Of a DNA stretch of 64,000 nt, positions 2,639 to 45,090 are shown one piece after another. The translations under genes and the position numbers were made by a program. Every line of letters begins with the position of its first letter. Position 1 is the first letter of the stretch. The stretch comes from Candidatus Moraniibacteriota bacterium (GTDB lineage: Bacteria; Patescibacteriota; Minisyncoccia; Moranbacterales; GCA-2747515). The notes below the pieces were generated by a model that had not been told where the DNA came from, searched no databases, and saw only the letters and a program-made list of their open reading frames with translations. The DNA is taken from NCBI GenBank assembly GCA_046116545.1, contig CP175956.1:77219-141218 (forward strand), written 5' to 3'.

Positions 2639-2688
2639 TTTTTCGCTATACTCTATTTATATAGTAATTATAGTTTTTTTTATCATTT

Positions 2689-4932: not shown

Positions 4933-4985
4933 TATTAATTGTAGAGACGCGATTAATCGCGTCTCTACGTAACCATACTATTAAA

Positions 4986-6818: not shown

Positions 6819-6828
6819 TCAAAATTAT

Positions 6829-12575: not shown

Positions 12576-12680
12576 GTCTTTGCGAGCAACTGTGACTTTT
12601 ATTATGTCTAGCGAAGCAATCTCCACCAGGTTTATTAATATACTCACTAAGATTGCTTCGTCGTACCTCCTCGCAATGAC
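12576..12680. repeat. Palindromic element family A. Its unit II overlaps the 3' end and supplies the stop codon of the GT4 gene.
   Basis: gtctttgcgagcaactgtgac...gcgaagcaatctc / ctaagattgcttcgtcgtacctcctcgcaatgac. On the minus strand, unit II reads ...V S L R G G T T K Q S stop. Confidence 0.8.
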
Positions 12681-13831: not shown

Positions 13832-13858
13832 ACATACAATTATACAACAAAAGAAAAA

Positions 13859-13886
13859 ATACTGGAAACATTTGTGTTTCCAGTAT
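13859..13886 (-). terminator. Hairpin followed by a T-run on the minus strand, downstream of ugd
   Basis: atactggaaaca-tttgt-gtttccagtat, then TTTTTCTTTT on the transcribed (minus) strand. Confidence 0.55.
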
Positions 13887-13897
13887 TTTATTTTATT

Positions 13898-18333: not shown

Positions 18334-19842
18334 TTGATATACTGTTTATATATTCACATTGAAATAAATACTAAAATGTTACATAAAAAAAATATTACAA
18401 TTGCAAATTCAACAATATTCTTAACTATCCTGTGCTTATTATTTTTTGGCATGACTAAATTTTCTTTTGCTGCTGAGTGGCGCTATGAGGGGGTTGCCTA
18501 TTATGTACCAACCTCATCAAGTAATAACCTTCCTATATATCGATTTTATTCTCCGAAAAATAAATCTCATTTCTTTACAAAGTCAAAATCAGAAAAAGAT
18601 GCTATTATCAAAAAATATCCTACAACAGAGTGGAGATATGAAGGAGTTGCCTATTATGTGCCAAAGTCCTCAACAGGAAACCAGGCTGTTTATCGATTTT
18701 ATTCTCCTAGCAAAAAAACACATTTCTTTACAAAATCAAAATCAGAAAAAGATGCTATTATCAAAAAATATCCCACAACAGAGTGGCGATATGAAGGAGT
18801 CGCATATTATGTGCCAATAACTTCTACTAACAATAAACCTGTATATCGATTTTACAATACTATAAACAAGGCACATTTTTTTACAGCCTCAGAAAGTGAA
18901 AAGATTAGGTTAACTGCTAGTATTTATGGACCGTATATTTCTATTGGACTTCATGAATATTCACGTAGCACACTAAAAGACTCTGCATTCAAAATTGACT
19001 CAAAAAAAGATTATCTCATCAAAGACAAAAATGGTACAACAATTGCAAAAATTAAGGCTGGTGTACAAACAAAAGTTAAATATGATTCTGATGGAAATTT
19101 AAAAATATATAATTCCATATCAGAAAAAAAAGTTAATAAAGAGGTTAGATTTGAAGCAGCTGATGGAAACAATAGTGGTATGATATTTGATATACACAAA
19201 CCAGAATCTGATTTTGATGAATACCGTGGCAAAACAAAACTACGTTATAGTGATACAAGCAAAAATATTTGGGTTATCAATGAATTACCATTGGAATATT
19301 ATATTTGGGGTATGGGTGAAATCACTGGAACAGGTCCAATGGAATATAATAAAATGATGACCACAGCATATCGTACATATGGTTATTGGAAAATCCTCTA
19401 TTCCACCAAGTATGCTACTGAAGGATTTAAAGTAAATGCAACGCCTGGTAATCAAATTTATTATGGTTATGAATGGGAAAAAAGGTATCCTCGTATTAGA
19501 GAAGGAGCTGAATCAACACGTGGGAAAATTGCAAAACATGGTGATGATGTGGCATTAACTCCTTACTCAAGCTGGACTGATGGCAAGACACGTAGTTTTG
19601 AAGAACATTGGGGATCAACACTATATCCATGGTGTCAGTCTGTATCAGACCCTTATGGTGATTATAATGGTGACTATTGGGACAATTCATATAAAAGTAC
19701 ATCCGACCTTGTAGCAAGTGGCAATCATATGGTAGGTATCAGTGCACATGGAGCACTAACACTAGCAAATGATAAAAATTGGAATTGGGACAGAATTATG
19801 AAATACTATTTAGATGGAATTAATATTGTTTCAATTTATTAA
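18334..19842 (+). CDS. Secreted SpoIID/LytB-domain protein with three N-terminal 42-aa tandem repeats
   Basis: Signal peptide, then three copies of EWRYEGVAYYVP...PVYRFYSP.NK.HFFT.S.SEK. The C-terminal domain has SpoIID-like motifs INELPLEYYIWGMGEI...AYRTYGYW and YPWCQSVSDP. Confidence 0.65.
   Translation: MIYCLYIHIEINTKMLHKKNITIANSTIFLTILCLLFFGMTKFSFAAEWRYEGVAYYVPTSSSNNLPIYRFYSPKNKSHFFTKSKSEKDAIIKKYPTTEWRYEGVAYYVPKSSTGNQAVYRFYSPSKKTHFFTKSKSEKDAIIKKYPTTEWRYEGVAYYVPITSTNNKPVYRFYNTINKAHFFTASESEKIRLTASIYGPYISIGLHEYSRSTLKDSAFKIDSKKDYLIKDKNGTTIAKIKAGVQTKVKYDSDGNLKIYNSISEKKVNKEVRFEAADGNNSGMIFDIHKPESDFDEYRGKTKLRYSDTSKNIWVINELPLEYYIWGMGEITGTGPMEYNKMMTTAYRTYGYWKILYSTKYATEGFKVNATPGNQIYYGYEWEKRYPRIREGAESTRGKIAKHGDDVALTPYSSWTDGKTRSFEEHWGSTLYPWCQSVSDPYGDYNGDYWDNSYKSTSDLVASGNHMVGISAHGALTLANDKNWNWDRIMKYYLDGINIVSIY
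18475..18860 (+). repeat. Three 126-bp (42-aa) tandem coding repeats
   Basis: Periodicity is visible in the DNA and in the protein. The alternate-frame ORF 18467..18820 is an artefact of this periodicity. Confidence 0.8.
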
Positions 19843-20604: not shown

Positions 20605-22467
20605 ATGAGAAACATCAAAAATATATATCTAATAATACTTGCATTATTTTTAATAGCATTTCCCACAGTAATTCATGCACAATCAAAATTGCCATCAATC
20701 CCCATACAATCAATCGCAGCTGAAAAAAACTATGTTGAAGGTGAAGTAATTGTAAAATATAAAATAAATACAAAAAAACAACAATTACTAAAAACATCTA
20801 CAGAAAAAAATGAATCACCAAGACTACTGCAATCTCTACAGGAAACACAATCCATGCATGATCTAAAAATAAAAAATACATTCAAAAATTTAAATATCAC
20901 AACATTACAATCAGATATACAATCAACCCAAGATTTAATAACTAAACTAGAACAAGATCCTGAAGTGGAATATGCGGAACCTAACTACAGAAAATATCCT
21001 ACATCAATACCAAATGATACTTATTTCAAAAGTACACAATGGGCACTATACAATACAGGACAGGAACTTTGTACACCTGACTGCACTACAGGAACAATCG
21101 ATGATGATATTGACGCAACAAATGCTTGGGATATAGAGATTAGTGCTGCCCAAAAAATAACCGTTGCAGTAATAGACAGTGGCTTAAATTATAATCACGA
21201 AGATTTATTACAAAATTTATGGAATGGTGCTAGTTGTGTAAATGAAAATGGAACAACTATACATGGTGGTTGTCCATATCATGGATGGGATTACGCCGAT
21301 AATGACAATAATCCTGCTGATACTACTGGAAGTGCGCAAGGACATGGAACAAGCGTTTCAAGTATATTTGGTGCAACAACAAATAATTCAAAAGGACTTG
21401 CAGGCATCAGTCTATATGGCAATGTAAAGGTTATGGCACTTCGATTTGATTTGGATACAATCTCTGAAATAAAAGCTATTGAATTTGCAAAAAATAATGG
21501 TGTCAAAATTATAAATGCAAGTTTTGCAGGAGATGCCTATTCACAATCAGAAAAAGATGCTATTGATGCATTTCCTGGAATATTTATAACAGCATCTGGC
21601 AACGGTGGCATTGATGGCTTACGTGATAACAATGACGTTACACCGCAATATCCATGTAATTATTCATCAAGTAATATAATATGTGTAGGTGCATCTGATC
21701 AAAATGATAATCTTGCTAGTTTTTCAAATTATGGACAAACAAGCGTTGATTTAGTGGCTCCTGGAGTAAATATATTAATTGCTTGTGATAATGTCTACTG
21801 TACTGGTGATGGTACTTCATTTTCTACACCCTACGTAACAGGTGTTGCTGCAATCTTGTCTAGCCACAATACAAAATTGTCTACATCACAAGTGAAAAGT
21901 TTAATACTTGATAATGTCGATAATGTTGGACTATCAACACAGATAAAAACGGGAGGTCGTCTTAATATGTATAAATCTCTTTACGATTTGAAAACTAGTT
22001 ACGGATATTCATACTCCACAAAACCAGTTTACAGATTCTATTCACCAAGCAATAAAGCACATTTCTTTACTGTATCCGAAACTGAAAAGAATCATATTGT
22101 TGCAACTTACCCAACCACTGAATGGCGATATGAAAATATTGCTTATTATGTACCAACAACATCTACTGGCAATAAGCCTGTGTATAGATTCTATTCACCA
22201 CGCAACAAAGCTCATTTTTTCACTGTATCAGAAACTGAAAAGAATCATATTGTTGCAACTTACCCAACCACTGAATGGCGATATGAAAATATTGCTTATT
22301 ATGTACCAACAACATCTACTGGCAATAAGCCTGTATATCGATTTTATTCTCCACGTAACAAAGCACATTTCTTTACTGTATCAGAAAGTGAAAAGAATCA
22401 TATTGTTGCAACTTACCCAACCACTGAATGGCGATATGAAAATATTGCTTATTATGTACCAAAATAA
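20605..22467 (+). CDS. Secreted subtilisin-like serine protease (peptidase S8) with three C-terminal 42-aa tandem repeats
   Basis: Signal peptide. Catalytic triad motifs VAVIDSG (Asp), HGTSVSS (His) and GTSFSTPYVTGVAA (Ser). The C-terminus has three near-identical repeats PVYRFYSPRNKAHFFTVSETEKNHIVATYPTTEWRYENIAYYVP. Confidence 0.85.
   Translation: MRNIKNIYLIILALFLIAFPTVIHAQSKLPSIPIQSIAAEKNYVEGEVIVKYKINTKKQQLLKTSTEKNESPRLLQSLQETQSMHDLKIKNTFKNLNITTLQSDIQSTQDLITKLEQDPEVEYAEPNYRKYPTSIPNDTYFKSTQWALYNTGQELCTPDCTTGTIDDDIDATNAWDIEISAAQKITVAVIDSGLNYNHEDLLQNLWNGASCVNENGTTIHGGCPYHGWDYADNDNNPADTTGSAQGHGTSVSSIFGATTNNSKGLAGISLYGNVKVMALRFDLDTISEIKAIEFAKNNGVKIINASFAGDAYSQSEKDAIDAFPGIFITASGNGGIDGLRDNNDVTPQYPCNYSSSNIICVGASDQNDNLASFSNYGQTSVDLVAPGVNILIACDNVYCTGDGTSFSTPYVTGVAAILSSHNTKLSTSQVKSLILDNVDNVGLSTQIKTGGRLNMYKSLYDLKTSYGYSYSTKPVYRFYSPSNKAHFFTVSETEKNHIVATYPTTEWRYENIAYYVPTTSTGNKPVYRFYSPRNKAHFFTVSETEKNHIVATYPTTEWRYENIAYYVPTTSTGNKPVYRFYSPRNKAHFFTVSESEKNHIVATYPTTEWRYENIAYYVPK
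22018..22464 (+). repeat. Three near-identical 126-bp tandem coding repeats
   Basis: The copies differ at only a few nucleotides. The alternate-frame ORF 22097..22525 is an artefact. Confidence 0.85.
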
Positions 22468-32764: not shown

Positions 32765-33454
32765 TTACATCTTTATATTTTTTCTCTGTGCGCGTAATTC
32801 CAAAGCCTTCCTATAAATTTGCATATCTTTCGCATGAAATCTTTCCACATTCTTTCTAAACTCATCCGAAATATCCTCACTATTCTTTCTATTAACACGC
32901 TCATGATAAACTGACATTTCAACCTTTAAAAAAAATTTTGAAAAATATTTCACATCTTCTTCATAAAATTCAGTAATACCAATAAAATCAAAGTCTTCTA
33001 GCGGAAATTTCCATAAATATTTTGAATAAACATTTCTCAACTCATTGCTAAAGCAGAAATTCTCTAATGACCAATTTTCTTCAATTACTTTCTTGTGTAA
33101 ATTAAAGGATTCATTATAATTATAAGACTTCTGCCAATAATTATAATGTGAAATTAATCGATCTACTGGATTACGCATCCATGTTACAAATTTAACATCT
33201 TCTCCTTTTCTGAATTTAATGGGAAGATATTTAAATGGAAGAAAATGACCGTGAATACATTGAATATTCTGATATTTATTTGAAAAAATATAATTATTAA
33301 AATATGCAATATTTGTCATTCCATGTCTTATTAGTGAAGAGTGCTGCAATGGTGCATCTTTATGATCAATTAATAACTGATTACCAAAATAATCATGTAA
33401 AGATTTTCTAAAGCTACTTCCCGCAGTTTTTGGTAAGTGTAGTGATATTAACAT
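32765..33454 (-). CDS. PAPS-dependent sulfotransferase (Sulfotransfer_2 / HS2ST-like)
   Basis: N-terminal 5'-phosphosulfate-binding-like motif LHLPKTAGSSF (compare PKTASTSF in 2-O-sulfotransferases). An internal IHGHF is present. Immediately adjacent to cysQ and cysC. Confidence 0.6.
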   Translation of the reverse strand: MLISLHLPKTAGSSFRKSLHDYFGNQLLIDHKDAPLQHSSLIRHGMTNIAYFNNYIFSNKYQNIQCIHGHFLPFKYLPIKFRKGEDVKFVTWMRNPVDRLISHYNYWQKSYNYNESFNLHKKVIEENWSLENFCFSNELRNVYSKYLWKFPLEDFDFIGITEFYEEDVKYFSKFFLKVEMSVYHERVNRKNSEDISDEFRKNVERFHAKDMQIYRKALELRAQRKNIKM

Positions 33455-33482: not shown

Positions 33483-34283
33483 TTATTTATTTATAAATAC
33501 TCTATTACTTACAATATACCCATTTAATAACATCGTTTCTTTGTTATTATATTTAATTGTACTATTCTGCATATCACAAACATATCCACCCGCTTCCTGT
33601 ATAATGATATCACTTGCGCAAATATCCCACAAGCCACTTTTATTACTTGAATTAATATACAATTCTGCATCACCTACTGCAACTTTACATATTTTAATAC
33701 CAGCTGAACCCATAGGAGCCTGTTTCATATTATTTTTCTCTGCAATTTCTTGTTCATAATCTCCCAAGTGATTTCGACTTACTAGAATTCTGCCATTTTT
33801 CATTGGTTTTTTGCTAGTTGAAATTCTTTTAGGAAGATTCCTGCCTTCGTAGGAATGACAATAGAAAAATGCGCCTTTATTTTTCTCGGCATAATATAAT
33901 TCATTTAATACTGGTGCATACACTATACCAAAAATTGACTCACCCTCCTTATTTACTAATCCAATCATTATTGAAAATTCTCCTGTTTTTTGTATGAAAT
34001 CAGATGTCCCATCTAGTGGATCAATAATCCACACAAAGTTTGCTTTTTTTCTATTTTCAAAATCATCCTCAATCTCTTCACTTAATATTGGATAATTATA
34101 TCTTGATAATTTATCCATCAAAAAATTATTCACTGCAATATCTGCCTCCGTTACAGGTGTTTTGTTTTGTTTTTGTTCTATGGTGTATTCTTTATCATAA
34201 AACTGCATGGCGATGTTACCTGCTTCAATTGCTATTTTTATTATTTCTTGGATATTTATATTGTAATTTTGCATGATTATCAT
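33483..34283 (-). CDS. cysQ: Inositol monophosphatase family protein, probably 3'(2'),5'-bisphosphate nucleotidase (CysQ-like PAP phosphatase)
   Basis: Motifs EEIEDDF...WIIDPLDGTSDF, IVYAPVLNELYYA and GSAGIKICKVAVGDAELY. Genomic context is cysC and a sulfotransferase. Confidence 0.7.
   Translation of the reverse strand: MIIMQNYNINIQEIIKIAIEAGNIAMQFYDKEYTIEQKQNKTPVTEADIAVNNFLMDKLSRYNYPILSEEIEDDFENRKKANFVWIIDPLDGTSDFIQKTGEFSIMIGLVNKEGESIFGIVYAPVLNELYYAEKNKGAFFYCHSYEGRNLPKRISTSKKPMKNGRILVSRNHLGDYEQEIAEKNNMKQAPMGSAGIKICKVAVGDAELYINSSNKSGLWDICASDIIIQEAGGYVCDMQNSTIKYNNKETMLLNGYIVSNRVFINK
33836..33860. repeat. Family-D hairpin (gattcctgccttcgtaggaatgaca) embedded in-frame in the cysQ-like CDS
   Basis: Differs by 1 nt from the copy at 45483..45508 downstream of another gene. 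Encodes HSYEGRN within the CDS. Confidence 0.6.
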
Positions 34284-34328: not shown

Positions 34329-34853
34329 TTATAATTGTTTGTCTATGTAACTTACTATTTTTTGAACGCTTTCTTCTACTGTTTCCTTTTCCGTATTCAC
34401 TATTATTTCTGAATTAACTGGTTTTTCAAATGGGTCTTGTACTCCTGTGAAATCCATTATTTCTCCTTTTTCTGCTTTAGCATACATACCCTTCACATCC
34501 CTCCTTTTACATTCTTCTACACTACACTCTACATACACCTCTATAAAATTTTCACATAAACCTCTCGTAAAATTACGCATTTTTTGATATGGTGATACAA
34601 ATGCTGATACCACATTTACACCATTATCAGATAACATCTGTGCAATATATGATAATCGTTCTATATTTTTATTTCTATCCTCTTTGCTGAAATCTAAATC
34701 ATTACTAATTGTTTCACGTACAATATCACCATCTAATCTTTGAATTGATAAATACTTCTCTTGAAAATATTTTTCAATTTCTTTTGATAGTGTTGTTTTT
34801 CCGCTACAAGGTAATCCAGTAAACCAAATTACTAATCCTTTGTCTTTTTTCAT
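34329..34853 (-). CDS. cysC: Adenylylsulfate (APS) kinase
   Basis: GLVIWFTGLPCSGKTTLSKEI (P-loop), LDGDIVRETISNDLDFSKEDRNKNIERL, and VNVVSAFVSPY. Canonical APS kinase motifs. Confidence 0.9.
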   Translation of the reverse strand: MKKDKGLVIWFTGLPCSGKTTLSKEIEKYFQEKYLSIQRLDGDIVRETISNDLDFSKEDRNKNIERLSYIAQMLSDNGVNVVSAFVSPYQKMRNFTRGLCENFIEVYVECSVEECKRRDVKGMYAKAEKGEIMDFTGVQDPFEKPVNSEIIVNTEKETVEESVQKIVSYIDKQL

Positions 34854-34902: not shown

Positions 34903-36318
34903 TTATTTTTTGCTCCATTCGTGTTCAATGCGCATTATTCCTACTCCAGACCCTTTTTGTTTTTTAATTTTGATAATATGATTATTTAGTTCTTTTGTTG
35001 AATTAGAATCCACAATATCATTTTGTCCACTTTTATTTTCAAATAAAACAGCTTTTATATATATTTCCCCCGTGTTAAACATCGTGTTTTTAAAATAAAT
35101 TATAAATACATTTCTATCTTTTTGCCAACTGCAATTAAAATTATCTACATCTGTATTATTACCACACAAAAATACATTTGTTTCATTGTCAAAAATTTGC
35201 ACTGCTTGCACAAGATTATGCTTAATTTTTGAAACTTGCACTTCAATCTCTACAAAAAAATCATCACCCCATGTAATTTCAGTTAATTTATTTCTATCTA
35301 TATCAAAAACCTGTATATCTGTAATTATATTTTCATTTTTCACTTGTCTTTTCATACCACCTCTTAGTGATTTCTCATGTTCCTGCTCTTCTTTTTCAAT
35401 CCGTTCCTTTTTTTCTAATTCTTCACGTTGGTCTTCAGACATATTTTTAATAATATATTCATCACATACATCATTCACATCACCAGAACCAAGTAATTCA
35501 CCCTTATGTAATAATAAAGCTCTATCACAATATTCTCGCACTGTTGCCATACTGTGGGTTACTAATATTACAGTTTTTCCCCTCTCTTTATATCCTCTGA
35601 AAATATCAAGACACTTCTCTTGAAATCTACTATCCCCCACAGCCAATACCTCATCCATAATAAGTATTTCACGATCTGCATGAATTGACACACTGAAAGC
35701 GAGACGAGCCTTCATGCCACTTGAATAATTTTTTAATTGTTCGTCTATAAATTTTTCTAATTCTGCAAATGCGACTATTTCATCAAACTTTTCATCAATT
35801 TGTTTTTTTGTTAAACCTAGTACTGTCGCATTGAGATATATATTGTCTCGTCCTGATAATTCTGGATTAAAACCTATTCCTAGCTCAAGGAATGGTGATA
35901 TCATACCATTTACCTCAATTGATCCAGATGTTGGTTGATAAACACCTGCTAAAATCTTTAACAATGTAGACTTACCTGCCCCATTATGTCCTATAATTCC
36001 CAAAAATTCTCCTTTTTTTACTTCTACTGAAATATCTTTGAGAGCGTAGAATTCTTCATATGTATTTTTTTTCAAAGAATTCACAAAAGCACTTTTCATT
36101 GAATCAATTTTTTTGTGAGGAATTTTAAAGATTTTTGAGACGTTTTTTACTTTTACTGCTATTTCTTTATCTGGCTGAGATTGCTTCGTCGTACCTTCTC
36201 CACCCAGGTGGTCCCTCTCTTGAACAGAGTTCAATTCACCTTGACGCAAAGATGCATCTTTTTTTACTTTGATGCTTTTATCTTTTTTATTTGATTGTTG
36301 GTTATTTTTTTTATTCAT
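34903..36318 (-). CDS. wzt: ABC transporter ATP-binding protein of the Wzt/TagH/KpsT polysaccharide-export type, with a C-terminal substrate-binding (Wzt_C-like) domain. It carries an in-frame 84-nt family-A insertion near the N-terminus.
   Basis: Walker A GHNGAGKST, signature YSSGMKARLAF and Walker B ILIMDEVLAVGD. An extra ~180-aa beta-rich C-terminal domain is present. The N-terminal leader contains SLRQGELNSVQERDHLGGEGTTKQSQP, encoded by repeat A. Confidence 0.8.
   Translation of the reverse strand: MNKKNNQQSNKKDKSIKVKKDASLRQGELNSVQERDHLGGEGTTKQSQPDKEIAVKVKNVSKIFKIPHKKIDSMKSAFVNSLKKNTYEEFYALKDISVEVKKGEFLGIIGHNGAGKSTLLKILAGVYQPTSGSIEVNGMISPFLELGIGFNPELSGRDNIYLNATVLGLTKKQIDEKFDEIVAFAELEKFIDEQLKNYSSGMKARLAFSVSIHADREILIMDEVLAVGDSRFQEKCLDIFRGYKERGKTVILVTHSMATVREYCDRALLLHKGELLGSGDVNDVCDEYIIKNMSEDQREELEKKERIEKEEQEHEKSLRGGMKRQVKNENIITDIQVFDIDRNKLTEITWGDDFFVEIEVQVSKIKHNLVQAVQIFDNETNVFLCGNNTDVDNFNCSWQKDRNVFIIYFKNTMFNTGEIYIKAVLFENKSGQNDIVDSNSTKELNNHIIKIKKQKGSGVGIMRIEHEWSKK
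36177..36251. repeat. Palindromic element family A, long unit II, inserted in-frame in wzt
   Basis: gagattgcttcgtcgtaccttctccacccaggtggtccctctcttgaacagagttcaattcaccttgacgcaaagat. This is the reverse complement of the intergenic copy at 24850..24926. Confidence 0.85.
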
Positions 36319-36328
36319 TGCTTTATAA

Positions 36329-37156
36329 TTATATCTTTTCTGCTACATTTGTGATTAATTTCCTGTATGCCCAAATACTAAATATGAAAAATGCAATAAT
36401 TACACTTATAAACATTGCTATTTGACTCAAATCTGGATAATGATTGTTAAACATTGATTCTTTTGTGAAATGGATGATAAATGCCACTGGATTCAGAAGA
36501 ATAAACTTATGTGTCCACACTGGTAACATTGTCAATGGATATAGAATTGGCAATATATAAAACATAACTCTCAATGCAACTTGCCAGATCATTGCCACAT
36601 CACGAAGATACAAAAGTAATGGCGCTGTAATAAGTGAAAATGACAATATTAGTATATATAACGCTACTGCAAAAGTAATTGAAAGTATGATAGATGCAAT
36701 AGACGGCATAAATTGAAATCCTATGAAAAATGCAATGATGACAATTATATTCATCAGAAATACCATCCCTGTATTTATAGTTGATGCCAGAATAATTGAC
36801 CACCTTGGTACATAAATTTTTGTTACTAATTGTGCTTTACTCTTAAGCGCATTCATACCCGCATTAGTTCCTTCTGAAAAAAATGTAAAAAGCATCAATG
36901 CAACTAGTAATTGCAAAGAATAATTTTCTATTCCACCACCACGAGCACCTGTACCAAACACACCGGAAAAAACAGCTGCCAAAACCAAAAACAAAAGAAG
37001 TGGCTGTAATACCGCCCATACATAACCCAAAACAGATCCTTGATAACGAAGTTTAAAATCCGTTTTAGCAAGCATCCAGATTAGCTCTTTATAATTTTCG
37101 TGTTCTTGTAGTGATTCTTTAATTATTTTCATAAATAAATAGTACAATAAAAACAC
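36329..37156 (-). CDS. wzm: ABC-2 type transporter permease (Wzm/TagG-like)
   Basis: 275 aa with 6 TM helices. Sits immediately upstream of the Wzt ATPase, with overlapping or adjacent arrangement. Confidence 0.75.
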   Translation of the reverse strand: MFLLYYLFMKIIKESLQEHENYKELIWMLAKTDFKLRYQGSVLGYVWAVLQPLLLFLVLAAVFSGVFGTGARGGGIENYSLQLLVALMLFTFFSEGTNAGMNALKSKAQLVTKIYVPRWSIILASTINTGMVFLMNIIVIIAFFIGFQFMPSIASIILSITFAVALYILILSFSLITAPLLLYLRDVAMIWQVALRVMFYILPILYPLTMLPVWTHKFILLNPVAFIIHFTKESMFNNHYPDLSQIAMFISVIIAFFIFSIWAYRKLITNVAEKI

Positions 37157-37226
37157 CTATCCCAAGGCTTTTTCATTATATCACATGGTAGCATTGTTGC
37201 AATAATACAACAATGCCTGCCAAAAT

Positions 37227-37640
37227 TTACTTTGGCACATAGTATGATACTCCTTCATACCTCCATTCTGTTGTAGGATATGTTGCAATAATATGATCCT
37301 TTTCACTTTCTGAAACTGTGAAAAAATGTGCCTTATTACGTGATGAATAAAATCTATATACTGGTTTATTACCTGCTGCAACTGTTGGCACATAGTATGA
37401 TATACCTTCATATCTCCATTCTGTTGTAGGATATGTTGCAATAATATGATCCTTTTCACTTTCTGAAACTGTGAAAAAATGTGCCTTATTACGTGATGAA
37501 TAAAATCTATATACTGGTTTATTACCTGATGCAGATGTTGGCACATAGTATGATATTCCTTCATATCTCCATTCTGTTGTAGGATATGTTGCAATTATAT
37601 GATTCTTTTCACTTTCTGAAACTGTGAAAAAATGGGCCTT
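37227..37640 (-). repeat. Three near-identical 126-bp tandem coding repeats
   Basis: Visible DNA periodicity. The alternate-frame ORF 37181..37594 is an artefact. Confidence 0.85.
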
Positions 37641-40600
37641 ATTACGTGCTGAGTAAAATCTATATACAGCTTGTTTTTCTTGTCTATCTGCATTCTCTTC
37701 TTCTATACCGTCTACATCAAAACTTATTGGAAAATCTGTATCATTTGTATTTCCTGATTCTTCTGTACACCTTATATAATAATTGTACGTATTTCCGTCT
37801 GATAATCCTGTTATATCATGTCCATGATCCTCGCCTCCTGTAACATTTGTCATTGCTGACATATCTGCATAAACTGTATTTAGAGCATCAGAATATCTAC
37901 ATGTTGCATTTTCCCATGTATTTAAATATATTTCTACACTAGTTGTTCCACTTGGTTGTGTCCCATCTGGGCTACCATCAAATCTATCTGGCATTGTATT
38001 ATCTACTTCAAAAGAAGTAACACTTAATACATTACTGGTATTTGCAGAACCATCTGTCACACTAATTGTACAATTACTATGAGTTCCCTCCGATAAAAAA
38101 TTAAAAGTAATTGTGTTATTTCCAACAGTCGCTGTACTTGTAACACTAGAGCAATCACCTCCATAAGTAATAGTTCCTACTTCATCTGTGTTGAATGTAT
38201 AGTCTGGTGTATTATTATTTGTTGGAGTTGATACTGGTGTCACTTCCGTTACTATAGGCGCTACCACATCGCTAATTGATTCATCTTTTATTTTTGATAC
38301 AAAAATATCATAACATCCATATGATGTTAAAGTATTTCCAGTCATATTAATTGTATCTTTAAATCTTCCAACTAAATATCCTTTCCCATAGTCATTAAAA
38401 GCCATTGCTTCACCTGTGTCAGTGCTTGTATTGCCCCAAGACTCTAATGAACTAGCATCTCCAGTTACAACATCTAATATTCCATAAAATATATCATAAC
38501 CACCAGCAGAACTCACGGGCAATGCGTCTGCATATAATGTTCCATAAAATCCACCTGTTATATATATGTTATTATCATTTACTTTAATGTCTGTACTATT
38601 CGTTGATGACGCGTTAGTCCAATGCTTCATCCAATCTACATCTCCATCAGTATTCAATCTTGCAATATATATATTATCATTACTGATTCCTGCTAAGGCT
38701 TGTCCAAATACATCTGCATTATTTTGAAACGTGCCTGATGTATACACATTTCCACTATCATCTATATCAATTGTATATCCATAATCACGAGCATACTCTG
38801 CACTACCACCTCCCTGTTTGGACCATACACTATCTCCATTTACATCTAATTTTGCCAAAAATATATCATATCCTCCAGTTCCACCACCTTCCGTAAATAC
38901 ATTCCCAAAAATATTTGCAACATCACTAAAATAACCGGTAACAAATACATTTCCATTTGTGTCTGTGACAATATCATTGCCTTTATCTAGGCTAGAGCCA
39001 CCCGATCTTTTTGCCCAAATATTATTTCCATCACTATCTATCTTTGCTACAAAAATATCATCACTACCAGCTGATACTAGAGATACTCCTAAAATATCAG
39101 TAGTCCCCGCAAATGAACCAGTTATGTACAAATCATCATTATCATCTATATATATCGATTTAGGATATTCTGTACTTGTACCACCAAAATTATATGCCCA
39201 AATCACATTACCATCATTATCTAATTTTGAAAGATAACCATCATAACTTCCGTTTGATGTTAAATCTATTCCAAAAATATTTGCATCATTACTAAAATAG
39301 CCTGTTAGATATAAATTACCCATGCTATCAATTTCAATAGATGGACTAGTTACATAACCAGTACCGTAAGCATGTTTTGTCCAAACAGAATTCCCATCTA
39401 AATCCAACTTTGTAATGAACGTATCCCACGGTCCATCTGCCACTAAATTTGTACCAAATATATCAGCATCTGTGTTAATAATTCCAACAACATAAGCATT
39501 TCCAGAATCATCAATAACAACATCATAAGCACCTTCACTTCCGCCTGAGTACGTATATGAGTTACACAATCCTGCATAATCCCCACCAGCATGTTTTGTC
39601 CACTCTGTAGTTCCAATATTAATATTTTTCATCATCAATTTTGTACCATTTGAACCGTCTGGCATATTATCATTTGATTCAAATGCTATTTTACTTCTGT
39701 CGGGTGAGATTGATGGTGCTCCATCATATCCTGCAAAATTTGTAAGTCTCTCCACAGTACCGCCTGCAACTGGAATTTTATAAATTTGTGCTAAATTTGT
39801 TTCAAAATCACTACTGTAGATTATATAATGACCATATTCTGAAAATACAGCATCTGTCTTGTCACCTGCACCACTTGTAACTTTTGATTTGTCTGTTCCA
39901 TCTGTATTCATAGTCCATATATCCCACATACCTCCATCTAATTTTTGATATAAAATTTTATCTCCTTTTGGTGACCAATTTGGTTGTCTACAATCATCTC
40001 CCGTATCTGTTAGATTTATGTAACTACTACTTCCATCAATTTTATACTTTGTAATAATTCCATCAGTTGGCACATCTACATCATGAGTTTCAAAAACAAC
40101 CCACTGACCATCGTGACTAAATGACGGTTCATATGACATTTTAGCACTCCCGCCTATTCTATCTGTAATTTTAACTTCTGCTCCTGTTGTAGCACTATCA
40201 CCTATACGAAATACTTCATCATGTGGATCTTTAGATGAAGAAAATGTTATTTCATTTCCAACCCATGAACTCCCAGGTAAATTCACATTATCATTTCCAT
40301 CACTCATGAGTTCTGTCACATTTTCTGATGCTATATCATAAATGTATAAATCAGCCGGACCTTCATTATATCCATTTCTCCACCGTGTAAAAAGAATTTT
40401 ACTTCCATCGGGAGAAAAAGCAGGGTTTTGCAAACTACCTGTTAAATTTATATTTAATACTGTCTCCCCATCATTTCTGACTATATAATCCTCGCATCCA
40501 AATCTGTATGCATCTAAATCAAGATTTTTCTTAAGCCAAGAATATCCACTAGAGTTTGCCTGTGAACAAAATTTATCTGTATCTACTCTGTACTCAACTC

Positions 40601-41255
40601 CAAAAACTGGCTTATCTGCATTTATAAAAGTTTGATATCCGTCACATTCATTATATTGATAGCATTGTTCATTTAATGCCCAATCAAAACTTCCAACCAA
40701 GTCATTGATTTGATCTACATCGTTTTTAAGTCCTATTGATAAATCCCGACTGTGCGCTTCTGTTGCTAACCAATTATTATACGTGAGTTGATCGCCTGCT
40801 GTAAGTGGAAATCCTGTTGTATTTGTATACCCATCTATATTATCTGGTTCTACTCCATCACAATTTTTTGAAACAGCCAAATCCAATCTTGCCTGCATAA
40901 TTGGTTGTAGTGATGCATCTCTAATATCTAACCATTTTTCACCAGCCCAACCATCCAAATCATCACCTTTCACAGATTCTGCAAAATCACCCGCATCACT
41001 ACGCCAATCTTCCCAGCTCCCAGCAGAAAAATAACAAATAACTATTCTACCATCTGCATGTAATTCATCTATCTTACTTTGTGGAGTATCAAACAAATCA
41101 ACATCATACATATCAACATCATATGAAGTATCCACATCTCCAGAATTCAATTGCCACTGCCAAGTTAAATCTTGCGCAGCAGTAGGTTGCCACCAAGCAT
41201 CCGTAAAGCTAACTGGTATCAATAATAGTGCTATGAATAATATTATTTTTTTCAT
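37227..41255 (-). CDS. Giant secreted multi-domain protein. Domains: signal peptide, GH114 (endo-alpha-1,4-polygalactosaminidase-like) glycoside hydrolase, TolB/PD40-type beta-propeller, SBBP-type beta-propeller repeats, and three C-terminal 42-aa repeats.
   Basis: GH114 hallmarks WQWQL, VDLFD, ICYFSAGSWEDWRSD, EKWLDIRD and CDGVEPDNIDGY. PD40-like repeats SPDGSKILFT, SHDGQWVVFE, SPKGDKILYQ and SPDRSKIAFES. SBBP-like GNAYVVG, GNLYLTGYF, DLYITGSF and GNVFVTGYF. C-terminus has three copies of PVYRFYSSRNKAHFFTVSESEKDHIIATYPTTEWRYEGISYYVP. Confidence 0.65.
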   Translation of the reverse strand: MKKIILFIALLLIPVSFTDAWWQPTAAQDLTWQWQLNSGDVDTSYDVDMYDVDLFDTPQSKIDELHADGRIVICYFSAGSWEDWRSDAGDFAESVKGDDLDGWAGEKWLDIRDASLQPIMQARLDLAVSKNCDGVEPDNIDGYTNTTGFPLTAGDQLTYNNWLATEAHSRDLSIGLKNDVDQINDLVGSFDWALNEQCYQYNECDGYQTFINADKPVFGVEYRVDTDKFCSQANSSGYSWLKKNLDLDAYRFGCEDYIVRNDGETVLNINLTGSLQNPAFSPDGSKILFTRWRNGYNEGPADLYIYDIASENVTELMSDGNDNVNLPGSSWVGNEITFSSSKDPHDEVFRIGDSATTGAEVKITDRIGGSAKMSYEPSFSHDGQWVVFETHDVDVPTDGIITKYKIDGSSSYINLTDTGDDCRQPNWSPKGDKILYQKLDGGMWDIWTMNTDGTDKSKVTSGAGDKTDAVFSEYGHYIIYSSDFETNLAQIYKIPVAGGTVERLTNFAGYDGAPSISPDRSKIAFESNDNMPDGSNGTKLMMKNINIGTTEWTKHAGGDYAGLCNSYTYSGGSEGAYDVVIDDSGNAYVVGIINTDADIFGTNLVADGPWDTFITKLDLDGNSVWTKHAYGTGYVTSPSIEIDSMGNLYLTGYFSNDANIFGIDLTSNGSYDGYLSKLDNDGNVIWAYNFGGTSTEYPKSIYIDDNDDLYITGSFAGTTDILGVSLVSAGSDDIFVAKIDSDGNNIWAKRSGGSSLDKGNDIVTDTNGNVFVTGYFSDVANIFGNVFTEGGGTGGYDIFLAKLDVNGDSVWSKQGGGSAEYARDYGYTIDIDDSGNVYTSGTFQNNADVFGQALAGISNDNIYIARLNTDGDVDWMKHWTNASSTNSTDIKVNDNNIYITGGFYGTLYADALPVSSAGGYDIFYGILDVVTGDASSLESWGNTSTDTGEAMAFNDYGKGYLVGRFKDTINMTGNTLTSYGCYDIFVSKIKDESISDVVAPIVTEVTPVSTPTNNNTPDYTFNTDEVGTITYGGDCSSVTSTATVGNNTITFNFLSEGTHSNCTISVTDGSANTSNVLSVTSFEVDNTMPDRFDGSPDGTQPSGTTSVEIYLNTWENATCRYSDALNTVYADMSAMTNVTGGEDHGHDITGLSDGNTYNYYIRCTEESGNTNDTDFPISFDVDGIEEENADRQEKQAVYRFYSARNKAHFFTVSESEKNHIIATYPTTEWRYEGISYYVPTSASGNKPVYRFYSSRNKAHFFTVSESEKDHIIATYPTTEWRYEGISYYVPTVAAGNKPVYRFYSSRNKAHFFTVSESEKDHIIATYPTTEWRYEGVSYYVPK

Positions 41256-41370
41256 ATATTTTTATATTCCTGAACACTCAGTATACCATAATTATAAAAC
41301 TAATTTTGATTGATTTTTCGCTCTCTACTGTATGATTTTTGAAATTTCTTTGTTATTAAATCAATGATCT

Positions 41371-41512
41371 ACCTTCTCCCCTTTTTAAAAGGGAAGATGT
41401 CCGATAGGACAGAGAGGGGTTTGTTATAGTAGCTTTTTAATCTTTGTATTATTTAGTTCTTATTTTTACCAAAACCACCCCTCAGTCCCCTCCTTAAAAA
41501 GAAGGGGAGGCT
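41371..41512. repeat. Hairpin element family B (part 2 then part 1)
   Basis: ccttctcccctttttaaaagggaagatgtccgataggacagagaggggtt ... accacccctcagtcccctccttaaaaagaaggggagg. Confidence 0.7.
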
Positions 41513-41920
41513 TTATTTATTTTTCTTTTCTTTGATTGTCAGCCAAATGAACATTATAAGACTAATTATCACAAACATTATACTTGCAAATGTTGATACT
41601 TGCTCTTTTGTATCTAATATCTCTATAAAACTCCCTGAACTTTCAGATGAAATCATAATCCAAATTACTGATATAAAAAAATACCAAAAGGTAAACTTTA
41701 ACCATTTTTTGAATATTTTGTCTGAGATGAAAAATGTAAAAATTGCGGTTATTAATAATCCTAATGACATCCATGCTATCGGATCCACATACCAATTATA
41801 TTCAAAAATTATTTCAAACAAATTATTTTTAATATCTAAATATGCTGCAATATAACTGTACGTAAAAAAAGTTATGGCAATTACTAATACTTCGACTCTT
41901 TTAATATATTTTTTTTTCAT
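41513..41920 (-). CDS. Small integral membrane protein
   Basis: 135 aa with 4 predicted TM helices. Confidence 0.4.
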   Translation of the reverse strand: MKKKYIKRVEVLVIAITFFTYSYIAAYLDIKNNLFEIIFEYNWYVDPIAWMSLGLLITAIFTFFISDKIFKKWLKFTFWYFFISVIWIMISSESSGSFIEILDTKEQVSTFASIMFVIISLIMFIWLTIKEKKNK

Positions 41921-41934
41921 AATTTAATTTAATT

Positions 41935-44900
41935 TTATTTAATTAACTTTTTAAAAATAAACACACTAACAATCATCAAAAATAATAGGAATATTCCAAT
42001 CAAAATATCTTTGATTGATTTTTTGTTTTCGGAATTATTATCATCTTTTATTTCCTTATTTTCATTTTCTACTGTATTGTTTTGAGATTTCTCTACTTCG
42101 GTCGAAATAACGTCCTTTTCATTTGCCACATCATCCCCCAGAGATTGCTTCGTCGTACCTCCTCGCAAAGACTCATTATTAAAAATATTTTCCGTAATAT
42201 TATTTTTTTCGTCATCGTCATCATCATTGTCTTTGTCATCATCTTTATTTTCATTGCTTTCACTACTACTAAATACTGTACTTCCATCATTTCCATCCTC
42301 TAATGTAGTAGTTCCATTGATTTGTGGTACAACTTCATAATCATTACTTCCATCACCATCATAATCAGCTGTGAGTCTTGTAATATTTTCCAATCCAGTT
42401 CTTGGAATTGCAAAACTTACTTTTGTATTTTCTGATGTTGGTAGATTTTCCATTGTTAGATATGAGGTTACTTCTTCTCCTGCCTCCGTGATACTCACTT
42501 CCTCTAATTTGATAGTATATGAACCTGTATTATAACCATCCAACTCCACGATTATATCACTACCACCCCATCCTACAAATTTATGTTCTCCAAATACATC
42601 GTAATAACTATTTGGCATATTTTCTTCTATAATTTGATTTCCATTTTCATCTATTATGGGTCCTGTGTGATTTCCTTGATTGTCGTATAAATGAATGTCT
42701 AGTGGTGAATATAATGCCATTCTAAGTCTTTTTGCACTGTGTTTACTATGCTTTATTGCGTCAGTGTCATCTGGTCTATTTTTCGTGATATAATCAGACA
42801 ATTCTTCTTGAATTTCATGTTTACTGATGATATTTGAGATTAAATTTCGTAACGACTTAACTTCTAAAATATCTTTGTGCTTTCTATCTTTCGCAAAACC
42901 CTTATTTTCTTCATACATATCCAAAAAATATTTCTCAACATTCTCAGATTCTGACATCATAAGTGAACTTGGTGTTACTACAACATTATCTCCATCTACT
43001 GTATATTTTGGTATATATGATTCTACTGTTACATCTTTGCATTTCGTTCTTTTTATTCCTTCTTTTGTTACTTTATCTTCACATTCTACTTTTGTGATAC
43101 TTTCATAATCTATTTCACTTATTGTATCAAGCCCCCAGCCTCCTATTTGTATTAGATTTACATTTTCTGGTGGTGTCCAGTTATTTAACTCTTCGTGCAA
43201 TTCTTTATTTTCATCAAATAATTTCTCATTTAATATATTTGCTCTTTTTGTATCATTCTTATTTGGTTTGTGTCTATTATCTTTTTTTGCCAATAGAAAA
43301 TCCTTGAATTCATCATAACTATTTATTGTATCTCCATATGCTTTTTTGTATTTCTTGTATTCTGATTTTTCTGATTTAAAATTTATTATTGGTTTATCTA
43401 TTCTTCTGAAATATTCTTCTGTTGGTAAAAGTCCATAAGCAGATGGCATATTTCGTACTACCTCCCTAGCTTCTGCGTCACTGATAACTGAATTTAATTC
43501 TATTTTTTCATCAAATCCATACAACATTGTCAAGATTGCCTTTGATGTTCCCATTTGTGGTGAACTTACCATGACAATATTATCAACTTTATCTGTCATG
43601 TTCAATATTTCAAGTTGTTGCATTATGGATTTTGCTAGTAATCCACCATTTGAATGAGCTACAATTGTAACTTTTCCACTAACTGATGAGTCAGATAATC
43701 TCATCACTTCACTTATTGGATTTTTTATAGAACTCATTTCATAATTTGTTCCATTTATTGCAATATCGTCTACACTTTTTCTCCAATCATATGCATATAA
43801 AGAATAATCATTTATTATTCTATCATCTTTTAAGTTTTTTAAATCTCCAAAAAATCTTTTGTAAATATTTGGAGCTAATACACTAGGAAGTCCTGCTTCA
43901 TAAATTGGCTCTTCAGTGAAAATATCATTTATACTATTTCCATCTTCATCTAATAATATATTTTTGTAATCATCTCCACCTGGAGTAGGTGGCCATACTT
44001 GATTTGTACCGTCATATAATCTGCTAGCTTTTGCACCTGGTAAAAACAATACATTTGATGCAAAATCCGATGATCCTCTCCAATCGTATTCTAATACATT
44101 TGTATCTCCGCTTACTTTTTCACCTGCTGCTAATATTGCATAATCGTCTCCATTTTCATTAACAAAGTTACCTGTTGGACCGTTTGTATGTCCGTACCAA
44201 TTATTTTCTAAAATAACCTTGCTACTGTCATGAGTCATTGCATCATTTTCACATGTTTCACAACATGCATCATAAATAGCATCATTTTGATTATTGTTAT
44301 ATTCATCATCACAGTTATCATAACAAATATCTTCTCCTTCAAAGTCATAAACTACAACATTTGAAATTACTGCTATATTTTGTCCACTTTCTTCAAAATT
44401 AGAATTTTTAATATGTACATAACTATTTTCATTGTAATCTTCTTCAAGTTCCATCTCTACTTGAATATCTGCATACTTGCTATTTTTGAAAATAACATTT
44501 TCCATATCTAATTGTCCTGACATATGTAGTATTGCTGGTGCTTTTCGAATAGCTTCTTCATCTGCATAAACATTATTTGTTATGATGTCATGTATTGCTA
44601 TCCCTGGACAATGTAATTCATTGTAATCAAAATATTCTCCCAATCCATCAAATTCTACAAATTTAAAAAATGATGGTTCAAATATATAACCATCAATTTC
44701 ATACGTATCAAATTTAAATGCTGAAACTCCACCTAAATCACACTGCTCATCAAACTCATTTCCTTCATTAAATGGAGTTTTTGTAAAAACTATTTTATTA
44801 TCAATATCGCCAACTGCAACAATACGTCCAGCATCTTGTACTACGATATGCTTTATTGATATATGTGATCCAGCTTCAATAGTTACTGTTGCACCATCAA

Positions 44901-45090
44901 TGATATATACCGCACCATACTCACTCAAATCTGTATCACTGTTCCATGTTACATCTGTAGTAATATATAAGTCATCACCATACCAAGCGTTTATATATTT
45001 GTGTATATATAAAAAATCAAATCGCAATGGTGCGAGAATGATTATTAGGATTAGAATTGTATTGATCGACTTTAAGATAAAGTTTTTCAT
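41935..45090 (-). CDS. Large secreted alpha/beta-hydrolase (lipase/esterase, LCAT/PGAP1-like) with an acidic low-complexity region, an in-frame family-A insertion and a C-terminal TM anchor
   Basis: Signal/TM N-terminus. Nucleophile-elbow-like VTIVAHSNGGLLAKS. Acidic tract DDDKDNDDDDDEKNN. Insertion NESLRGGTTKQSLGDD. C-terminal TM ILIGIFLLFLMIVSVFIF. Confidence 0.55.
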   Translation of the reverse strand: MKNFILKSINTILILIIILAPLRFDFLYIHKYINAWYGDDLYITTDVTWNSDTDLSEYGAVYIIDGATVTIEAGSHISIKHIVVQDAGRIVAVGDIDNKIVFTKTPFNEGNEFDEQCDLGGVSAFKFDTYEIDGYIFEPSFFKFVEFDGLGEYFDYNELHCPGIAIHDIITNNVYADEEAIRKAPAILHMSGQLDMENVIFKNSKYADIQVEMELEEDYNENSYVHIKNSNFEESGQNIAVISNVVVYDFEGEDICYDNCDDEYNNNQNDAIYDACCETCENDAMTHDSSKVILENNWYGHTNGPTGNFVNENGDDYAILAAGEKVSGDTNVLEYDWRGSSDFASNVLFLPGAKASRLYDGTNQVWPPTPGGDDYKNILLDEDGNSINDIFTEEPIYEAGLPSVLAPNIYKRFFGDLKNLKDDRIINDYSLYAYDWRKSVDDIAINGTNYEMSSIKNPISEVMRLSDSSVSGKVTIVAHSNGGLLAKSIMQQLEILNMTDKVDNIVMVSSPQMGTSKAILTMLYGFDEKIELNSVISDAEAREVVRNMPSAYGLLPTEEYFRRIDKPIINFKSEKSEYKKYKKAYGDTINSYDEFKDFLLAKKDNRHKPNKNDTKRANILNEKLFDENKELHEELNNWTPPENVNLIQIGGWGLDTISEIDYESITKVECEDKVTKEGIKRTKCKDVTVESYIPKYTVDGDNVVVTPSSLMMSESENVEKYFLDMYEENKGFAKDRKHKDILEVKSLRNLISNIISKHEIQEELSDYITKNRPDDTDAIKHSKHSAKRLRMALYSPLDIHLYDNQGNHTGPIIDENGNQIIEENMPNSYYDVFGEHKFVGWGGSDIIVELDGYNTGSYTIKLEEVSITEAGEEVTSYLTMENLPTSENTKVSFAIPRTGLENITRLTADYDGDGSNDYEVVPQINGTTTLEDGNDGSTVFSSSESNENKDDDKDNDDDDDEKNNITENIFNNESLRGGTTKQSLGDDVANEKDVISTEVEKSQNNTVENENKEIKDDNNSENKKSIKDILIGIFLLFLMIVSVFIFKKLIK
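42141..42172. repeat. Palindromic element family A, unit II, inserted in-frame (encodes SLRGGTTKQS)
   Basis: gagattgcttcgtcgtacctcctcgcaaagac. Exact match to intergenic copies. Confidence 0.85.

Follow-up and report, generated by a model that had tools for sequence, protein, structure and literature searches.

A modular GH114-family protein with two beta-propellers and a DUF5648 tail, encoded beside a glycan export cluster in Candidatus Moraniibacteriota

Which polymer would a large, putatively surface-displayed glycoside hydrolase of a host-dependent bacterium cut, its own or that of a neighbour? The question is raised by a 1342-amino-acid (aa) protein encoded in a 64,000-nucleotide stretch of DNA from a Candidatus Moraniibacteriota bacterium (positions 77,219 to 141,218 of contig CP175956.1, assembly GCA_046116545.1; hereafter the window), a lineage of the candidate phyla radiation (CPR). 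An earlier note, made from the letters of this stretch, had proposed that the protein is a cell-surface glycanase which joins a GH114 polygalactosaminidase-like hydrolase to two types of beta-propeller and to anchoring repeats, and which could remodel the organism's own polymer or attack that of a host or partner. By all the sequence and predicted-fold comparisons made here the protein is a member of GH114, and the reading preferred below, at a probability of roughly 50%, is that it acts on a foreign matrix polymer, of a biofilm or a partner, resembling Pel or galactosaminogalactan (GAG).

The open reading frame (ORF) is present at the position given in the earlier note, which did not name the strand, as a single ATG-started frame of 1342 codons on the minus strand with no internal stops; the plus-strand reading of the same interval is riddled with stop codons. 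It is a genuine gene and not a chance ORF, since an open frame of 4 kb lies in DNA of about 31-34% G+C and yields four independent domain matches. The G+C content is approximately 0.32-0.34 over the gene and 0.26-0.38 over the window, suggesting no break in composition. A 137-aa ORF with a TTG start that overlaps the gene (37181..37594) was rejected as an out-of-frame by-product of the repeat region. A database look-up by identical sequence returned no record of the exact protein, and tRNA and Rfam scans of the 64-kb window were both empty. The gene and its parts, with the evidence for each, are the following:

37227..41255, minus strand: whole gene for the modular GH114 protein, putatively secreted, 1342 aa, with ATG start and stop codon at 37227-37229 (ORF list, translation, Pfam)
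41196..41255, minus strand: candidate Sec-type signal peptide, aa 1-20, MKKIILFIALLLIPVSFTDA (read from the sequence; hydrophobic segment aa 1-19; low confidence in the structure model)
40482..41195, minus strand: GH114 (beta/alpha)8-barrel, catalytic domain, aa 21-258 (Pfam PF03537, match to Ega3 6oj1, Foldseek; predicted local distance difference test, pLDDT, >90)
40842..40844, minus strand: codon of D138, the counterpart of Ega3 Asp189 and predicted to be the catalytic nucleophile, inside CDGVEPDNIDGY (alignment and conservation)
40668..40670, minus strand: codon of E196, the counterpart of Ega3 Glu247 and predicted to be the general acid/base, inside ALNEQC (alignment and conservation)
39615..40481, minus strand: PD40/TolB-like beta-propeller, aa 259-547 (Pfam PD40, TolB matches in the PDB; pLDDT about 90-97)
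38280..39614, minus strand: SBBP beta-propeller, aa 548-992, seven repeats of about 61 aa (Pfam SBBP, CylK match, repeat consensus; pLDDT >90)
37686..38279, minus strand: two immunoglobulin (Ig)-like spacer domains, aa ~993-1090 and ~1091-1190 (BLAST to repeated units of about 95 aa)
37230..37685, minus strand: three tandem DUF5648 repeats, aa 1191-1342, putative glycan-binding tether (Pfam, Tandem Repeats Finder, structure model, literature)

The assignment to GH114 is carried first by the Pfam hidden Markov model (HMM) Glyco_hydro_114, which matches aa 31-248 over profile positions 1-228 of 231 (E=4.8e-88; 294.7 bits against a cut-off of 27). The four hallmark motifs that had been picked out by eye were located at aa 32 (WQWQL), 73 (ICYFSAGSWE), 108 (WLDIRD) and 132 (CDGVEPDNIDGY). 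Among PDB chains searched with HMMER, Ega3 of Aspergillus fumigatus (6oj1) matches at E=5.4e-62, with an ungapped alignment across both catalytic motifs, and family distance increases from Ega3 (E=5e-62) through FsGH114 (9ep6; E=4e-26) to a GH191 enzyme (9ep5; E=1e-4); no chains of PelA (GH166) or Sph3 (GH135) matched at E<=0.01 in this sequence search. An AlphaFold2 model of aa 1-570 has a mean pLDDT of 90, mostly >90 in the GH114 domain, and Foldseek superposes the barrel on Ega3 with TMt 0.88, a root-mean-square deviation of 1.8 A and 45% identity over 246 columns, so that a (beta/alpha)8-barrel of the Ega3 type is predicted. The earlier note had counted PelA among the GH114 enzymes. This part does not stand, as the hydrolase domain PelA_H is the founder of GH166, and GH114, GH135, GH166 and GH191 are distinct families that share a common barrel (PMC12054363).

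In Ega3, Asp189 (nucleophile) and Glu247 (acid/base) have been verified experimentally (PMC12054363). A single numbering offset, chain position + 41, fits both residues, placing Asp189 in D-P-D-N and Glu247 in N-E-Q-C, and their counterparts in the Moranbacterial protein are D138 in VEPDN and E196 in LNEQC; the catalytic acidic residues, the absence of which would have told against the proposal, are therefore present in the alignment. Conservation was counted on 115 GH114 domain segments, BLAST-trimmed from the retrieved homologues, and D138 and E196 are kept in at least 97% of them, as are W32, E82, R85, D87, E106, W108, D110, R123, N139, D191, E221, C230 and C254. The likeness to Ega3 (PDB 6OJ1/6OJB) extends beyond the Asp/Glu pair to four aligned cysteines and to acidic residues that are kept in both proteins. 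Ega3 is, however, a fungal enzyme of one domain, bound to the membrane, and its gene belongs to the GAG cluster, whereas the protein described here is bacterial, 1342 aa long, begins with a putative signal peptide and carries two propellers, spacers of the Ig-like type and a DUF5648 tail. Ega3 also has a strongly electronegative cleft and specificity for deacetylated stretches of galactosamine (GalN). By homology to it, the GH114 barrel is probably a retaining endo-alpha-1,4-galactosaminidase, for which GalN specificity is inferred.

Outside the barrel, module borders were set by BLAST against the retrieved relatives. The N-terminus (MKKIILFIALLLIPVSFTDA/WW), read by eye and not from the output of a predictor, resembles a Sec signal peptide lacking the cysteine of a lipobox, and a scan of the whole protein for hydrophobic segments found none besides this stretch. 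Both propeller types that had been proposed were recovered by HMMs and by structure models. The first gives a Pfam PD40 match (PF07676; E=3.8e-16, 59 bits against a cut-off of 20.9), its model matches TolB propellers at a Foldseek E of ~1e-16, and about six blades are estimated from its length and the TolB match. It is a PD40-repeat propeller only: the identification with TolB itself failed, as TIGR02800 scores 103.7 bits, far under its NCBIfam cut-off of 343, and covers only part of the propeller. The second gives an SBBP match (PF06739; E=1.1e-8, 35.3 bits against 20.5) and is resolved in a model of aa 545-1342 into seven repeats of about 61 residues with pLDDT >90. Its best Foldseek match is the C-terminal propeller of CylK (sequence search E=5.7e-30), an SBBP-repeat propeller like those of other SBBP-repeat proteins. 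The Friedel-Crafts alkylation catalyzed by CylK also involves its N-terminal domain, and nothing points to CylK chemistry in the Moranbacterial protein. A place in the LipL53 family of SBBP lipoproteins was considered and rejected (NCBIfam model, 137.8 bits against a cut-off of 400; signal peptide without a cysteine).

The Ig-like region is poorly modelled (pLDDT <50) and gave no significant match in a Pfam search; its two domains were recognised by BLAST to units of about 95 aa repeated in five relatives (P0123, P0132, P0138, P0159 and P0009). An exhaustive search also found a unit of this kind (aa 996-1089 of the protein), at approximately 50% identity, in giant proteins 2,000-7,000 aa long (P0241-P0244), which contain as many as 61 copies. 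The C-terminal repeats, which the earlier note took to be anchoring, proved on HMM search and structure prediction to be three DUF5648 units of 51 aa each (PF18885, aa 1197-1340; E=1.5e-58, 197.2 bits against a cut-off of 25). In the DNA they form an array with a 153-bp period, 2.8 copies and 95% identity, and in the model they appear, with pLDDT 70-80, as three beta-beta-alpha-beta units. Neither a cohesin nor a dockerin was matched in a Pfam search of the protein.

How unusual this combination is was judged from 380 related proteins, retrieved by two indexed searches and one exhaustive HMMER search. Their module combinations are distributed as follows:

GH114 only: 99 proteins
SBBP only: 223 proteins
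GH114 and PD40: 12 proteins
GH114 and DUF5648: 2 proteins
GH114 and the first Ig-like domain: 1 protein (P0009)
First Ig-like domain and SBBP: 4 proteins
Both Ig-like domains and DUF5648: 1 protein (P0197)

None of the 380 combines GH114 with SBBP, and none has more than three of the six modules found here. As judged from these comparisons, the protein is a mosaic of cassettes each known elsewhere, and the exact combination is new within the sets searched. The GH114-PD40 fusions P0010 (from an Anaerolineae bacterium), P0003 and P0011 align as one contiguous cassette with aa ~14-548 at 43-53% identity. Unlike the protein described here, they stop behind PD40 or run on into a TIGR01370/GH191-like domain, and none has SBBP, Ig-like or DUF5648 modules. 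The PD40 module occurs at 44-66% identity in WOR-3, Bacteroidota, Chlorobiota, Myxococcota, Chloroflexota and other groups. Since the match lists show it fused to GH5, GH8, GH9, GH26, beta-helix, polysaccharide lyase (PL)-like and GH114 domains, it is seen as an accessory module, of putative function, that moves among secreted carbohydrate-active enzymes. The top-scoring homologue, P0001 (1056 bits), was set aside as a full-length relative, as it consists of five tandem GH114 domains in an unrelated context. Tandem GH114 proteins were observed twice, as P0001 itself (1428 aa; L001 7197-11483) and P0002 with three domains (927 aa). A third domain resembling a TIGR01370/GH191-like barrel, called by eye and from JGI names, accompanies GH114 and PD40 in P0008, P0010 and P0014, suggesting multi-galactosaminidase enzymes.

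A scan of genome collections placed the closest matches in metagenome-assembled genomes (MAGs) of Candidatus Moraniibacteriota (L004, 80% identity; L012, 78%; L005, 71%). Gene similarity and synteny point in turn to a Moranbacteria-like CPR bacterium as the source of the window. The L005 orthologue (1778-3601) has the order PL-like (PF14099), GH114, dockerin; that of L004 (1310-3316, equal to P0283) has an unassigned N-terminal domain of about 270 aa followed by GH114 and DUF5648. P0009 combines PL-like, GH114 and Ig-like domains, with a GH114 domain 79% identical to the one described here, and the L012 locus encodes PL-like, GH26 and DUF5648 domains. The orthologues of L005 and L004 share with the window a GH114 domain of 71-80% identity and the same upstream gene for a 135-aa membrane protein, and in L005 also the downstream Wzm and Wzt genes; unlike the protein described here, neither has a propeller, and the DUF5648 of L005 stands on a separate cohesin-like protein. 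On this sequence comparison, the Moranbacterial orthologues retain GH114 and exchange its partner domains. The N-terminal domain of the L004 protein (1310-2134) had no Pfam match at E<=10 and no PDB sequence match, and an esterase-like identity, considered by eye from its 'HHSTGG' start, found no support in Pfam or PDB.

DUF5648 repeats are carried by three secreted-type proteins of the window, namely the GH114 protein and the following two:

20605..22467, plus strand: secreted S8 protease (subtilase) with a DUF5648 triple repeat, 83% identical at the aa level to the repeats of the GH114 protein
18334..19842, plus strand: SpoIID-like protein with DUF5648 repeats near its N-terminus (profile and BLAST comparison)

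Between MAGs the repeats are only ~48-50% identical, against 83% within the genome, which suggests that the copies of one genome track one lineage-specific ligand. Published DUF5648 domains occur in the receptor-binding C-terminal domains of the toxins BSAP-2 and BSAP-3, which target O-antigen, in the auxiliary domains of GH70 enzymes, and on a GH25 endolysin of a prophage, where a cell-wall-binding role is put forward for the domain. Their fold, described as (beta3-alpha)3 or as a beta-alpha propeller of three blades, agrees with the model obtained here. The tail resembles the modules of BSAP-2/-3 and GH70 in being a three-unit beta/alpha module at the protein terminus for which recognition of surface glycans has been proposed, and differs in being joined to a CPR hydrolase, with putative binding. 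By analogy, it may be a glycan-binding tether, to the wall glycan of the cell itself or to the surface of a partner. The published roles, the sharing of the repeats by three secreted-type proteins and their place on a cohesin-like protein in L005 lend indirect support to the anchoring role proposed for the repeats. A functional analogy is offered by wall proteins of Clostridioides difficile with their triple CWB2 repeats.

A different arrangement is found in the sister MAG L005, where the GH114 enzyme carries a dockerin (29.2 bits against a cut-off of 22.9) with two clear calcium-loop repeats, and a gene two positions downstream (6356-7315) encodes a cohesin-like N-terminal domain and DUF5648. 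Judged from these domains, L005 seems to divide between two proteins what is fused in one here. SBBP proteins with dockerins were also observed among close relatives (P0124 and P0128). Dockerin/cohesin-like pairs may represent a cellulosome-like display in CPR bacteria; a literature search for cohesins and dockerins in CPR found nothing specific.

The polymer concerned could be one made next door. The window encodes bacterial housekeeping proteins (a class A penicillin-binding protein, a ClpB-like protein, DnaK and GrpE) as well as a DUF4012 protein, and in a block of about 28 kb (22589-50927) every annotated gene lies on the minus strand. With rising coordinates the block comprises five GT2 genes, a TOD1/MUCI70-like glycosyltransferase, a methyltransferase, DUF4915 and a borderline Sulfotransfer_1 gene; then a CysQ-like phosphatase, adenosine phosphosulfate (APS) kinase, Wzt, Wzm, the GH114 protein and the 135-aa membrane protein; and then a 1051-aa PGAP1/lipase-like protein, a GT4-type transferase, an AAA/DUF4143 ATPase, ATP sulfurylase and DUF4012. 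The genes and intergenic regions of most relevance are:

32765-33454, minus strand: borderline sulfotransferase
33483-34283, minus strand: CysQ-like phosphatase
34329-34853, minus strand: APS kinase
34903..36318, minus strand: Wzt-type ATP-binding cassette (ABC) ATPase with a C-terminal Wzt_C-like domain (Wzt_C below threshold here, above the cut-off in the L005 orthologue)
36329..37156, minus strand: Wzm-type ABC-2 permease (63% identical orthologue in L005)
37157..37226, minus strand: downstream spacer ahead of the Wzm gene, with inverted repeat GCATTGTTG...CAACAATGC and a promoter-like site
41256..41512, minus strand: upstream intergenic region, with terminator-like hairpin 41411-41398, TATAAT-like hexamer 41296-41291 and AGGAA 41271-41267
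41513..41920, minus strand: conserved membrane protein of 135 aa, hydrophobic in three segments (its gene also lies upstream of GH114 in both L004 and L005)
41935..45090, minus strand: 1051-aa PGAP1/LCAT-like, lipase-like protein (N-terminal signal and C-terminal transmembrane segment)
48093-49214, minus strand: ATP sulfurylase

The full pathway to phosphoadenosine phosphosulfate (PAPS) is thus encoded in the cluster (ATP sulfurylase, APS kinase and the CysQ-like protein), with methyltransferases alongside, which suggests that the cluster product is a sulfated and/or methyl-capped glycan exported by the ABC transporter, the cap possibly serving as chain terminator. The order lipase-like protein, 135-aa protein, GH114, Wzm, Wzt recurs in L005, with identities of 51% (lipase-like protein), 50% (135-aa protein), 63% (Wzm) and 60% (Wzt). 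L005 has additional genes, for an 802-aa alpha/beta hydrolase and the cohesin-like/DUF5648 protein between GH114 and Wzm and for a Schlafen/AlbA_2 protein between Wzm and Wzt. On the short L004 contig the 135-aa gene likewise precedes GH114.

Further from the window this association is lost. A metagenome scan with the 135-aa protein yielded three more loci, in which the lipase-like gene lies upstream of the 135-aa gene and GH114 is absent; one of the three is the equivalent locus L086, where Wzt and GT2 genes follow. In the Saccharibacteria the GH114 locus L070 lies among Mur ligases and folate and purine genes, with no glycan cluster, and the GH114 gene of P0042 (L003) adjoins BipA and an FG-GAP protein, again with no glycan cluster. 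Because L070, L003 and the three loci found through the 135-aa protein do not show it, the link between GH114 and a glycan cluster is, across the loci compared, confined to the closest relatives. The gene itself is flanked on both sides by terminator-like and promoter-like signals. Upstream, the TATAAT-like hexamer and AGGAA were spotted by eye and were not called by the scan; between the GH114 gene and wzm lies the promoter-like site TTGCAA-16-TATAAT with an extended TG (37202-37175), scoring 10/12. From these signals and from its absence in L086 we conclude that GH114 is probably an accessory insertion at the locus in a few close relatives and not a core member of the pathway.

Some further features of the neighbourhood were observed. 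The lipase-like gene is always followed by a gene for a membrane protein of about 135-141 aa with the invariant motif FISDKIFKKWLKFTFW, both in the window and in 5/5 other loci that are long enough (including L005 71-1701, L084, L085 and L086). The AAA_14/DUF4143 ATPase gene (46739-47989, minus strand) interrupts the glycan cluster, and homologues occur near GH114 or Wzt genes in unrelated contigs (L001 19751-21085 and L086 2604-3773); it may be a mobile or defence-type insertion. Elsewhere in the window, four consecutive large PMT_2 genes for ArnT/PMT-like membrane glycosyltransferases lie at 911-8781, one on the minus and three on the plus strand. Adjacent UDP-glucose/GDP-mannose dehydrogenase-family and GT4 genes (12647-15211, minus strand) are reminiscent of uronic-acid polymer synthesis. 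In the product of the GrpE gene (62641-63537, minus strand) the GrpE domain (aa 150-296) is preceded by a NUDIX domain at the N-terminus (aa 19-144), a fusion of which we know of no earlier example.

Under the preferred reading, the protein would be exported by the Sec pathway and displayed at the surface, where the DUF5648 tail would bind a surface glycan and tether the enzyme non-covalently. The two Ig-like domains and two propellers would form a long stalk or auxiliary binding region that projects the GH114 barrel outward. The barrel would then act as a retaining enzyme that cuts a cationic polysaccharide within its alpha-1,4-GalN stretches, D138 serving as the nucleophile and E196 as the acid/base, and the further conserved acidic residues (E82, D87, E106, D110, D191 and E221) would suit a cationic, de-N-acetylated, GalN-rich polymer. 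Together with the S8 protease and the SpoIID-like protein it may belong to a set of DUF5648-tagged exo-enzymes acting on extracellular material, and its purpose may be access, or the scavenging of amino sugars, by depolymerisation of a Pel- or GAG-like matrix. The partly characterised bacterial GH114 enzyme, the endo-alpha-1,4-polygalactosaminidase of Pseudomonas (putida) sp. 881, is endo-acting and retaining with a minimal substrate of four residues, and by analogy this is the mode of action expected here. The sp. 881 enzyme is a simple secreted degradative enzyme that is not known to carry propellers. The PelA hydrolase of Pseudomonas aeruginosa is alike in fold class, (beta/alpha)8, and in its Asp/Glu retaining mechanism; it acts on a cationic exopolysaccharide of GalN and N-acetylgalactosamine (GalNAc) and is encoded with biosynthetic genes. 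It differs in its CAZy family and in having a fused deacetylase domain, of which the protein described here has none.

A foreign target is favoured because of the degradative partners of the GH114 domains in close relatives (PL-like, GH26 and dockerin), the companion protease and the accessory status of the gene, and because of the mismatch between such an enzyme and a probably sulfated self polymer completed in the cytoplasm. Several points weigh against it. The position of GH114 beside a Wzm/Wzt glycan export cluster in two MAGs suits a role on the organism's own glycan equally well, and the closest homologue, P0009, adjoins a cluster of the Wzx type (Wzx/GT4/GT2). The specificity for GalN is carried over from a fungal enzyme that is 45% identical, and the net charge of -28 of the GH114 domain is weak evidence for it, the entire protein being acidic. 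The cohesin-like domain of L005 scores 20.4 bits, below the Pfam cut-off of 24.1, and had no match in a PDB sequence search. Finally, the candidate bacterial GH114 enzymes of one study were not obtained in soluble form (PMC12054363).

The strongest competitor is the processing of the organism's own glycan, a possible but more tentative reading in which GH114 trims, releases or sizes the polymer exported by Wzm/Wzt and DUF5648 binds that same polymer, by analogy with Ega3 and Sph3 on fungal GAG and PelA on Pel. Published roles of glycosidases in GAG and Pel biosynthesis speak for it, as does the location of GH114 upstream of Wzm/Wzt, directly in the window and with two genes between in L005, behind the same upstream gene pair, and the P0009 neighbourhood adds to this. 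The closeness of the DUF5648 copies within the genome, against their divergence between MAGs, would also be expected if they tracked a lineage-specific glycan such as the product of the adjacent, variable cluster. However, five Pfam scans of the 64-kb window, one of them at E<=1, turned up neither a polysaccharide deacetylase nor a UDP-GalNAc epimerase, and the genes for PAPS synthesis and the sulfotransferase-like gene suggest a polymer that is anionic and completed in the cytoplasm, which a hydrolase of cationic GalN would suit poorly. The absence of GH114 from the homologous L086, the promoter- and terminator-like signals of its own, and the GH114 genes of L070 and P0042 outside glycan clusters likewise argue against it.

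A bolder form of the foreign-target reading, which we consider rather unlikely, takes the GH114 glycanase, the S8 protease and the SpoIID-like protein, as a wall-lytic factor, to be a kit with which an episymbiotic Moranbacterium attacks its host or feeds on it. In such a kit DUF5648 would serve to recognise a surface glycan specific to the partner's strain, as the BSAP toxins do O-antigen, and GH114 would clear a Pel-like matrix, and the sister lineage would build the same kit by way of its dockerin/cohesin-like pairs, in a cellulosome-like display.

Somewhat more doubtful still is a divergent specificity, with the GH114 domain acting on another alpha-linked (amino)sugar polymer or serving mainly as a transglycosylase or binding module, in which case the name polygalactosaminidase would not fit this clade. 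The studied GH114 enzymes amount to two (Ega3 and FsGH114) and one partly characterised bacterial preparation, the related families differ in their preference for acetylation, and transglycosylation has been documented for a GH114 enzyme. Against this, the protein is closer to Ega3 (45% identity, 1.8 A) than FsGH114 is (33-35%; PMC12054363), and the catalytic pair and many acidic residues of the cleft are near-invariant. That the gene is an assembly chimera or a fused gene call joining unrelated genes is highly improbable: the full domain order occurs in 0/380 relatives and the exact protein lacks a database record, but the frame is uninterrupted and of uniform G+C, the junctions recur elsewhere (GH114-PD40 in P0003, P0010 and P0011, SBBP-Ig in four proteins, Ig-Ig-DUF5648 in P0197), and the flanking genes are syntenic with L005.

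The catalytic assignment is in itself routine. NCBI already names homologues 'endo alpha-1,4 polygalactosaminidase' automatically, including one from Patescibacteria (P0047), and shuffling among a great variety of accessory domains is usual in the GH114 family; a literature search for GH114 in Patescibacteria found nothing specific. Beyond the enzyme, the noteworthy features are the set of DUF5648-tagged enzymes and the dockerin/cohesin-like variant of the sister MAG. The cationic GalN-rich polymers Pel and GAG, to which many biofilms of bacteria and fungi owe their cohesion, are cut by GH114 enzymes, and these enzymes are pursued as anti-biofilm agents. Structures of the family come from fungal members only, and as one study did not obtain its candidate bacterial enzymes in soluble form, this CPR enzyme at 45% identity to Ega3 would be worth considering for expression. 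Were its tether and its target resolved, the protein would illustrate the way in which very small bacteria that depend on a host deal with extracellular matrix.

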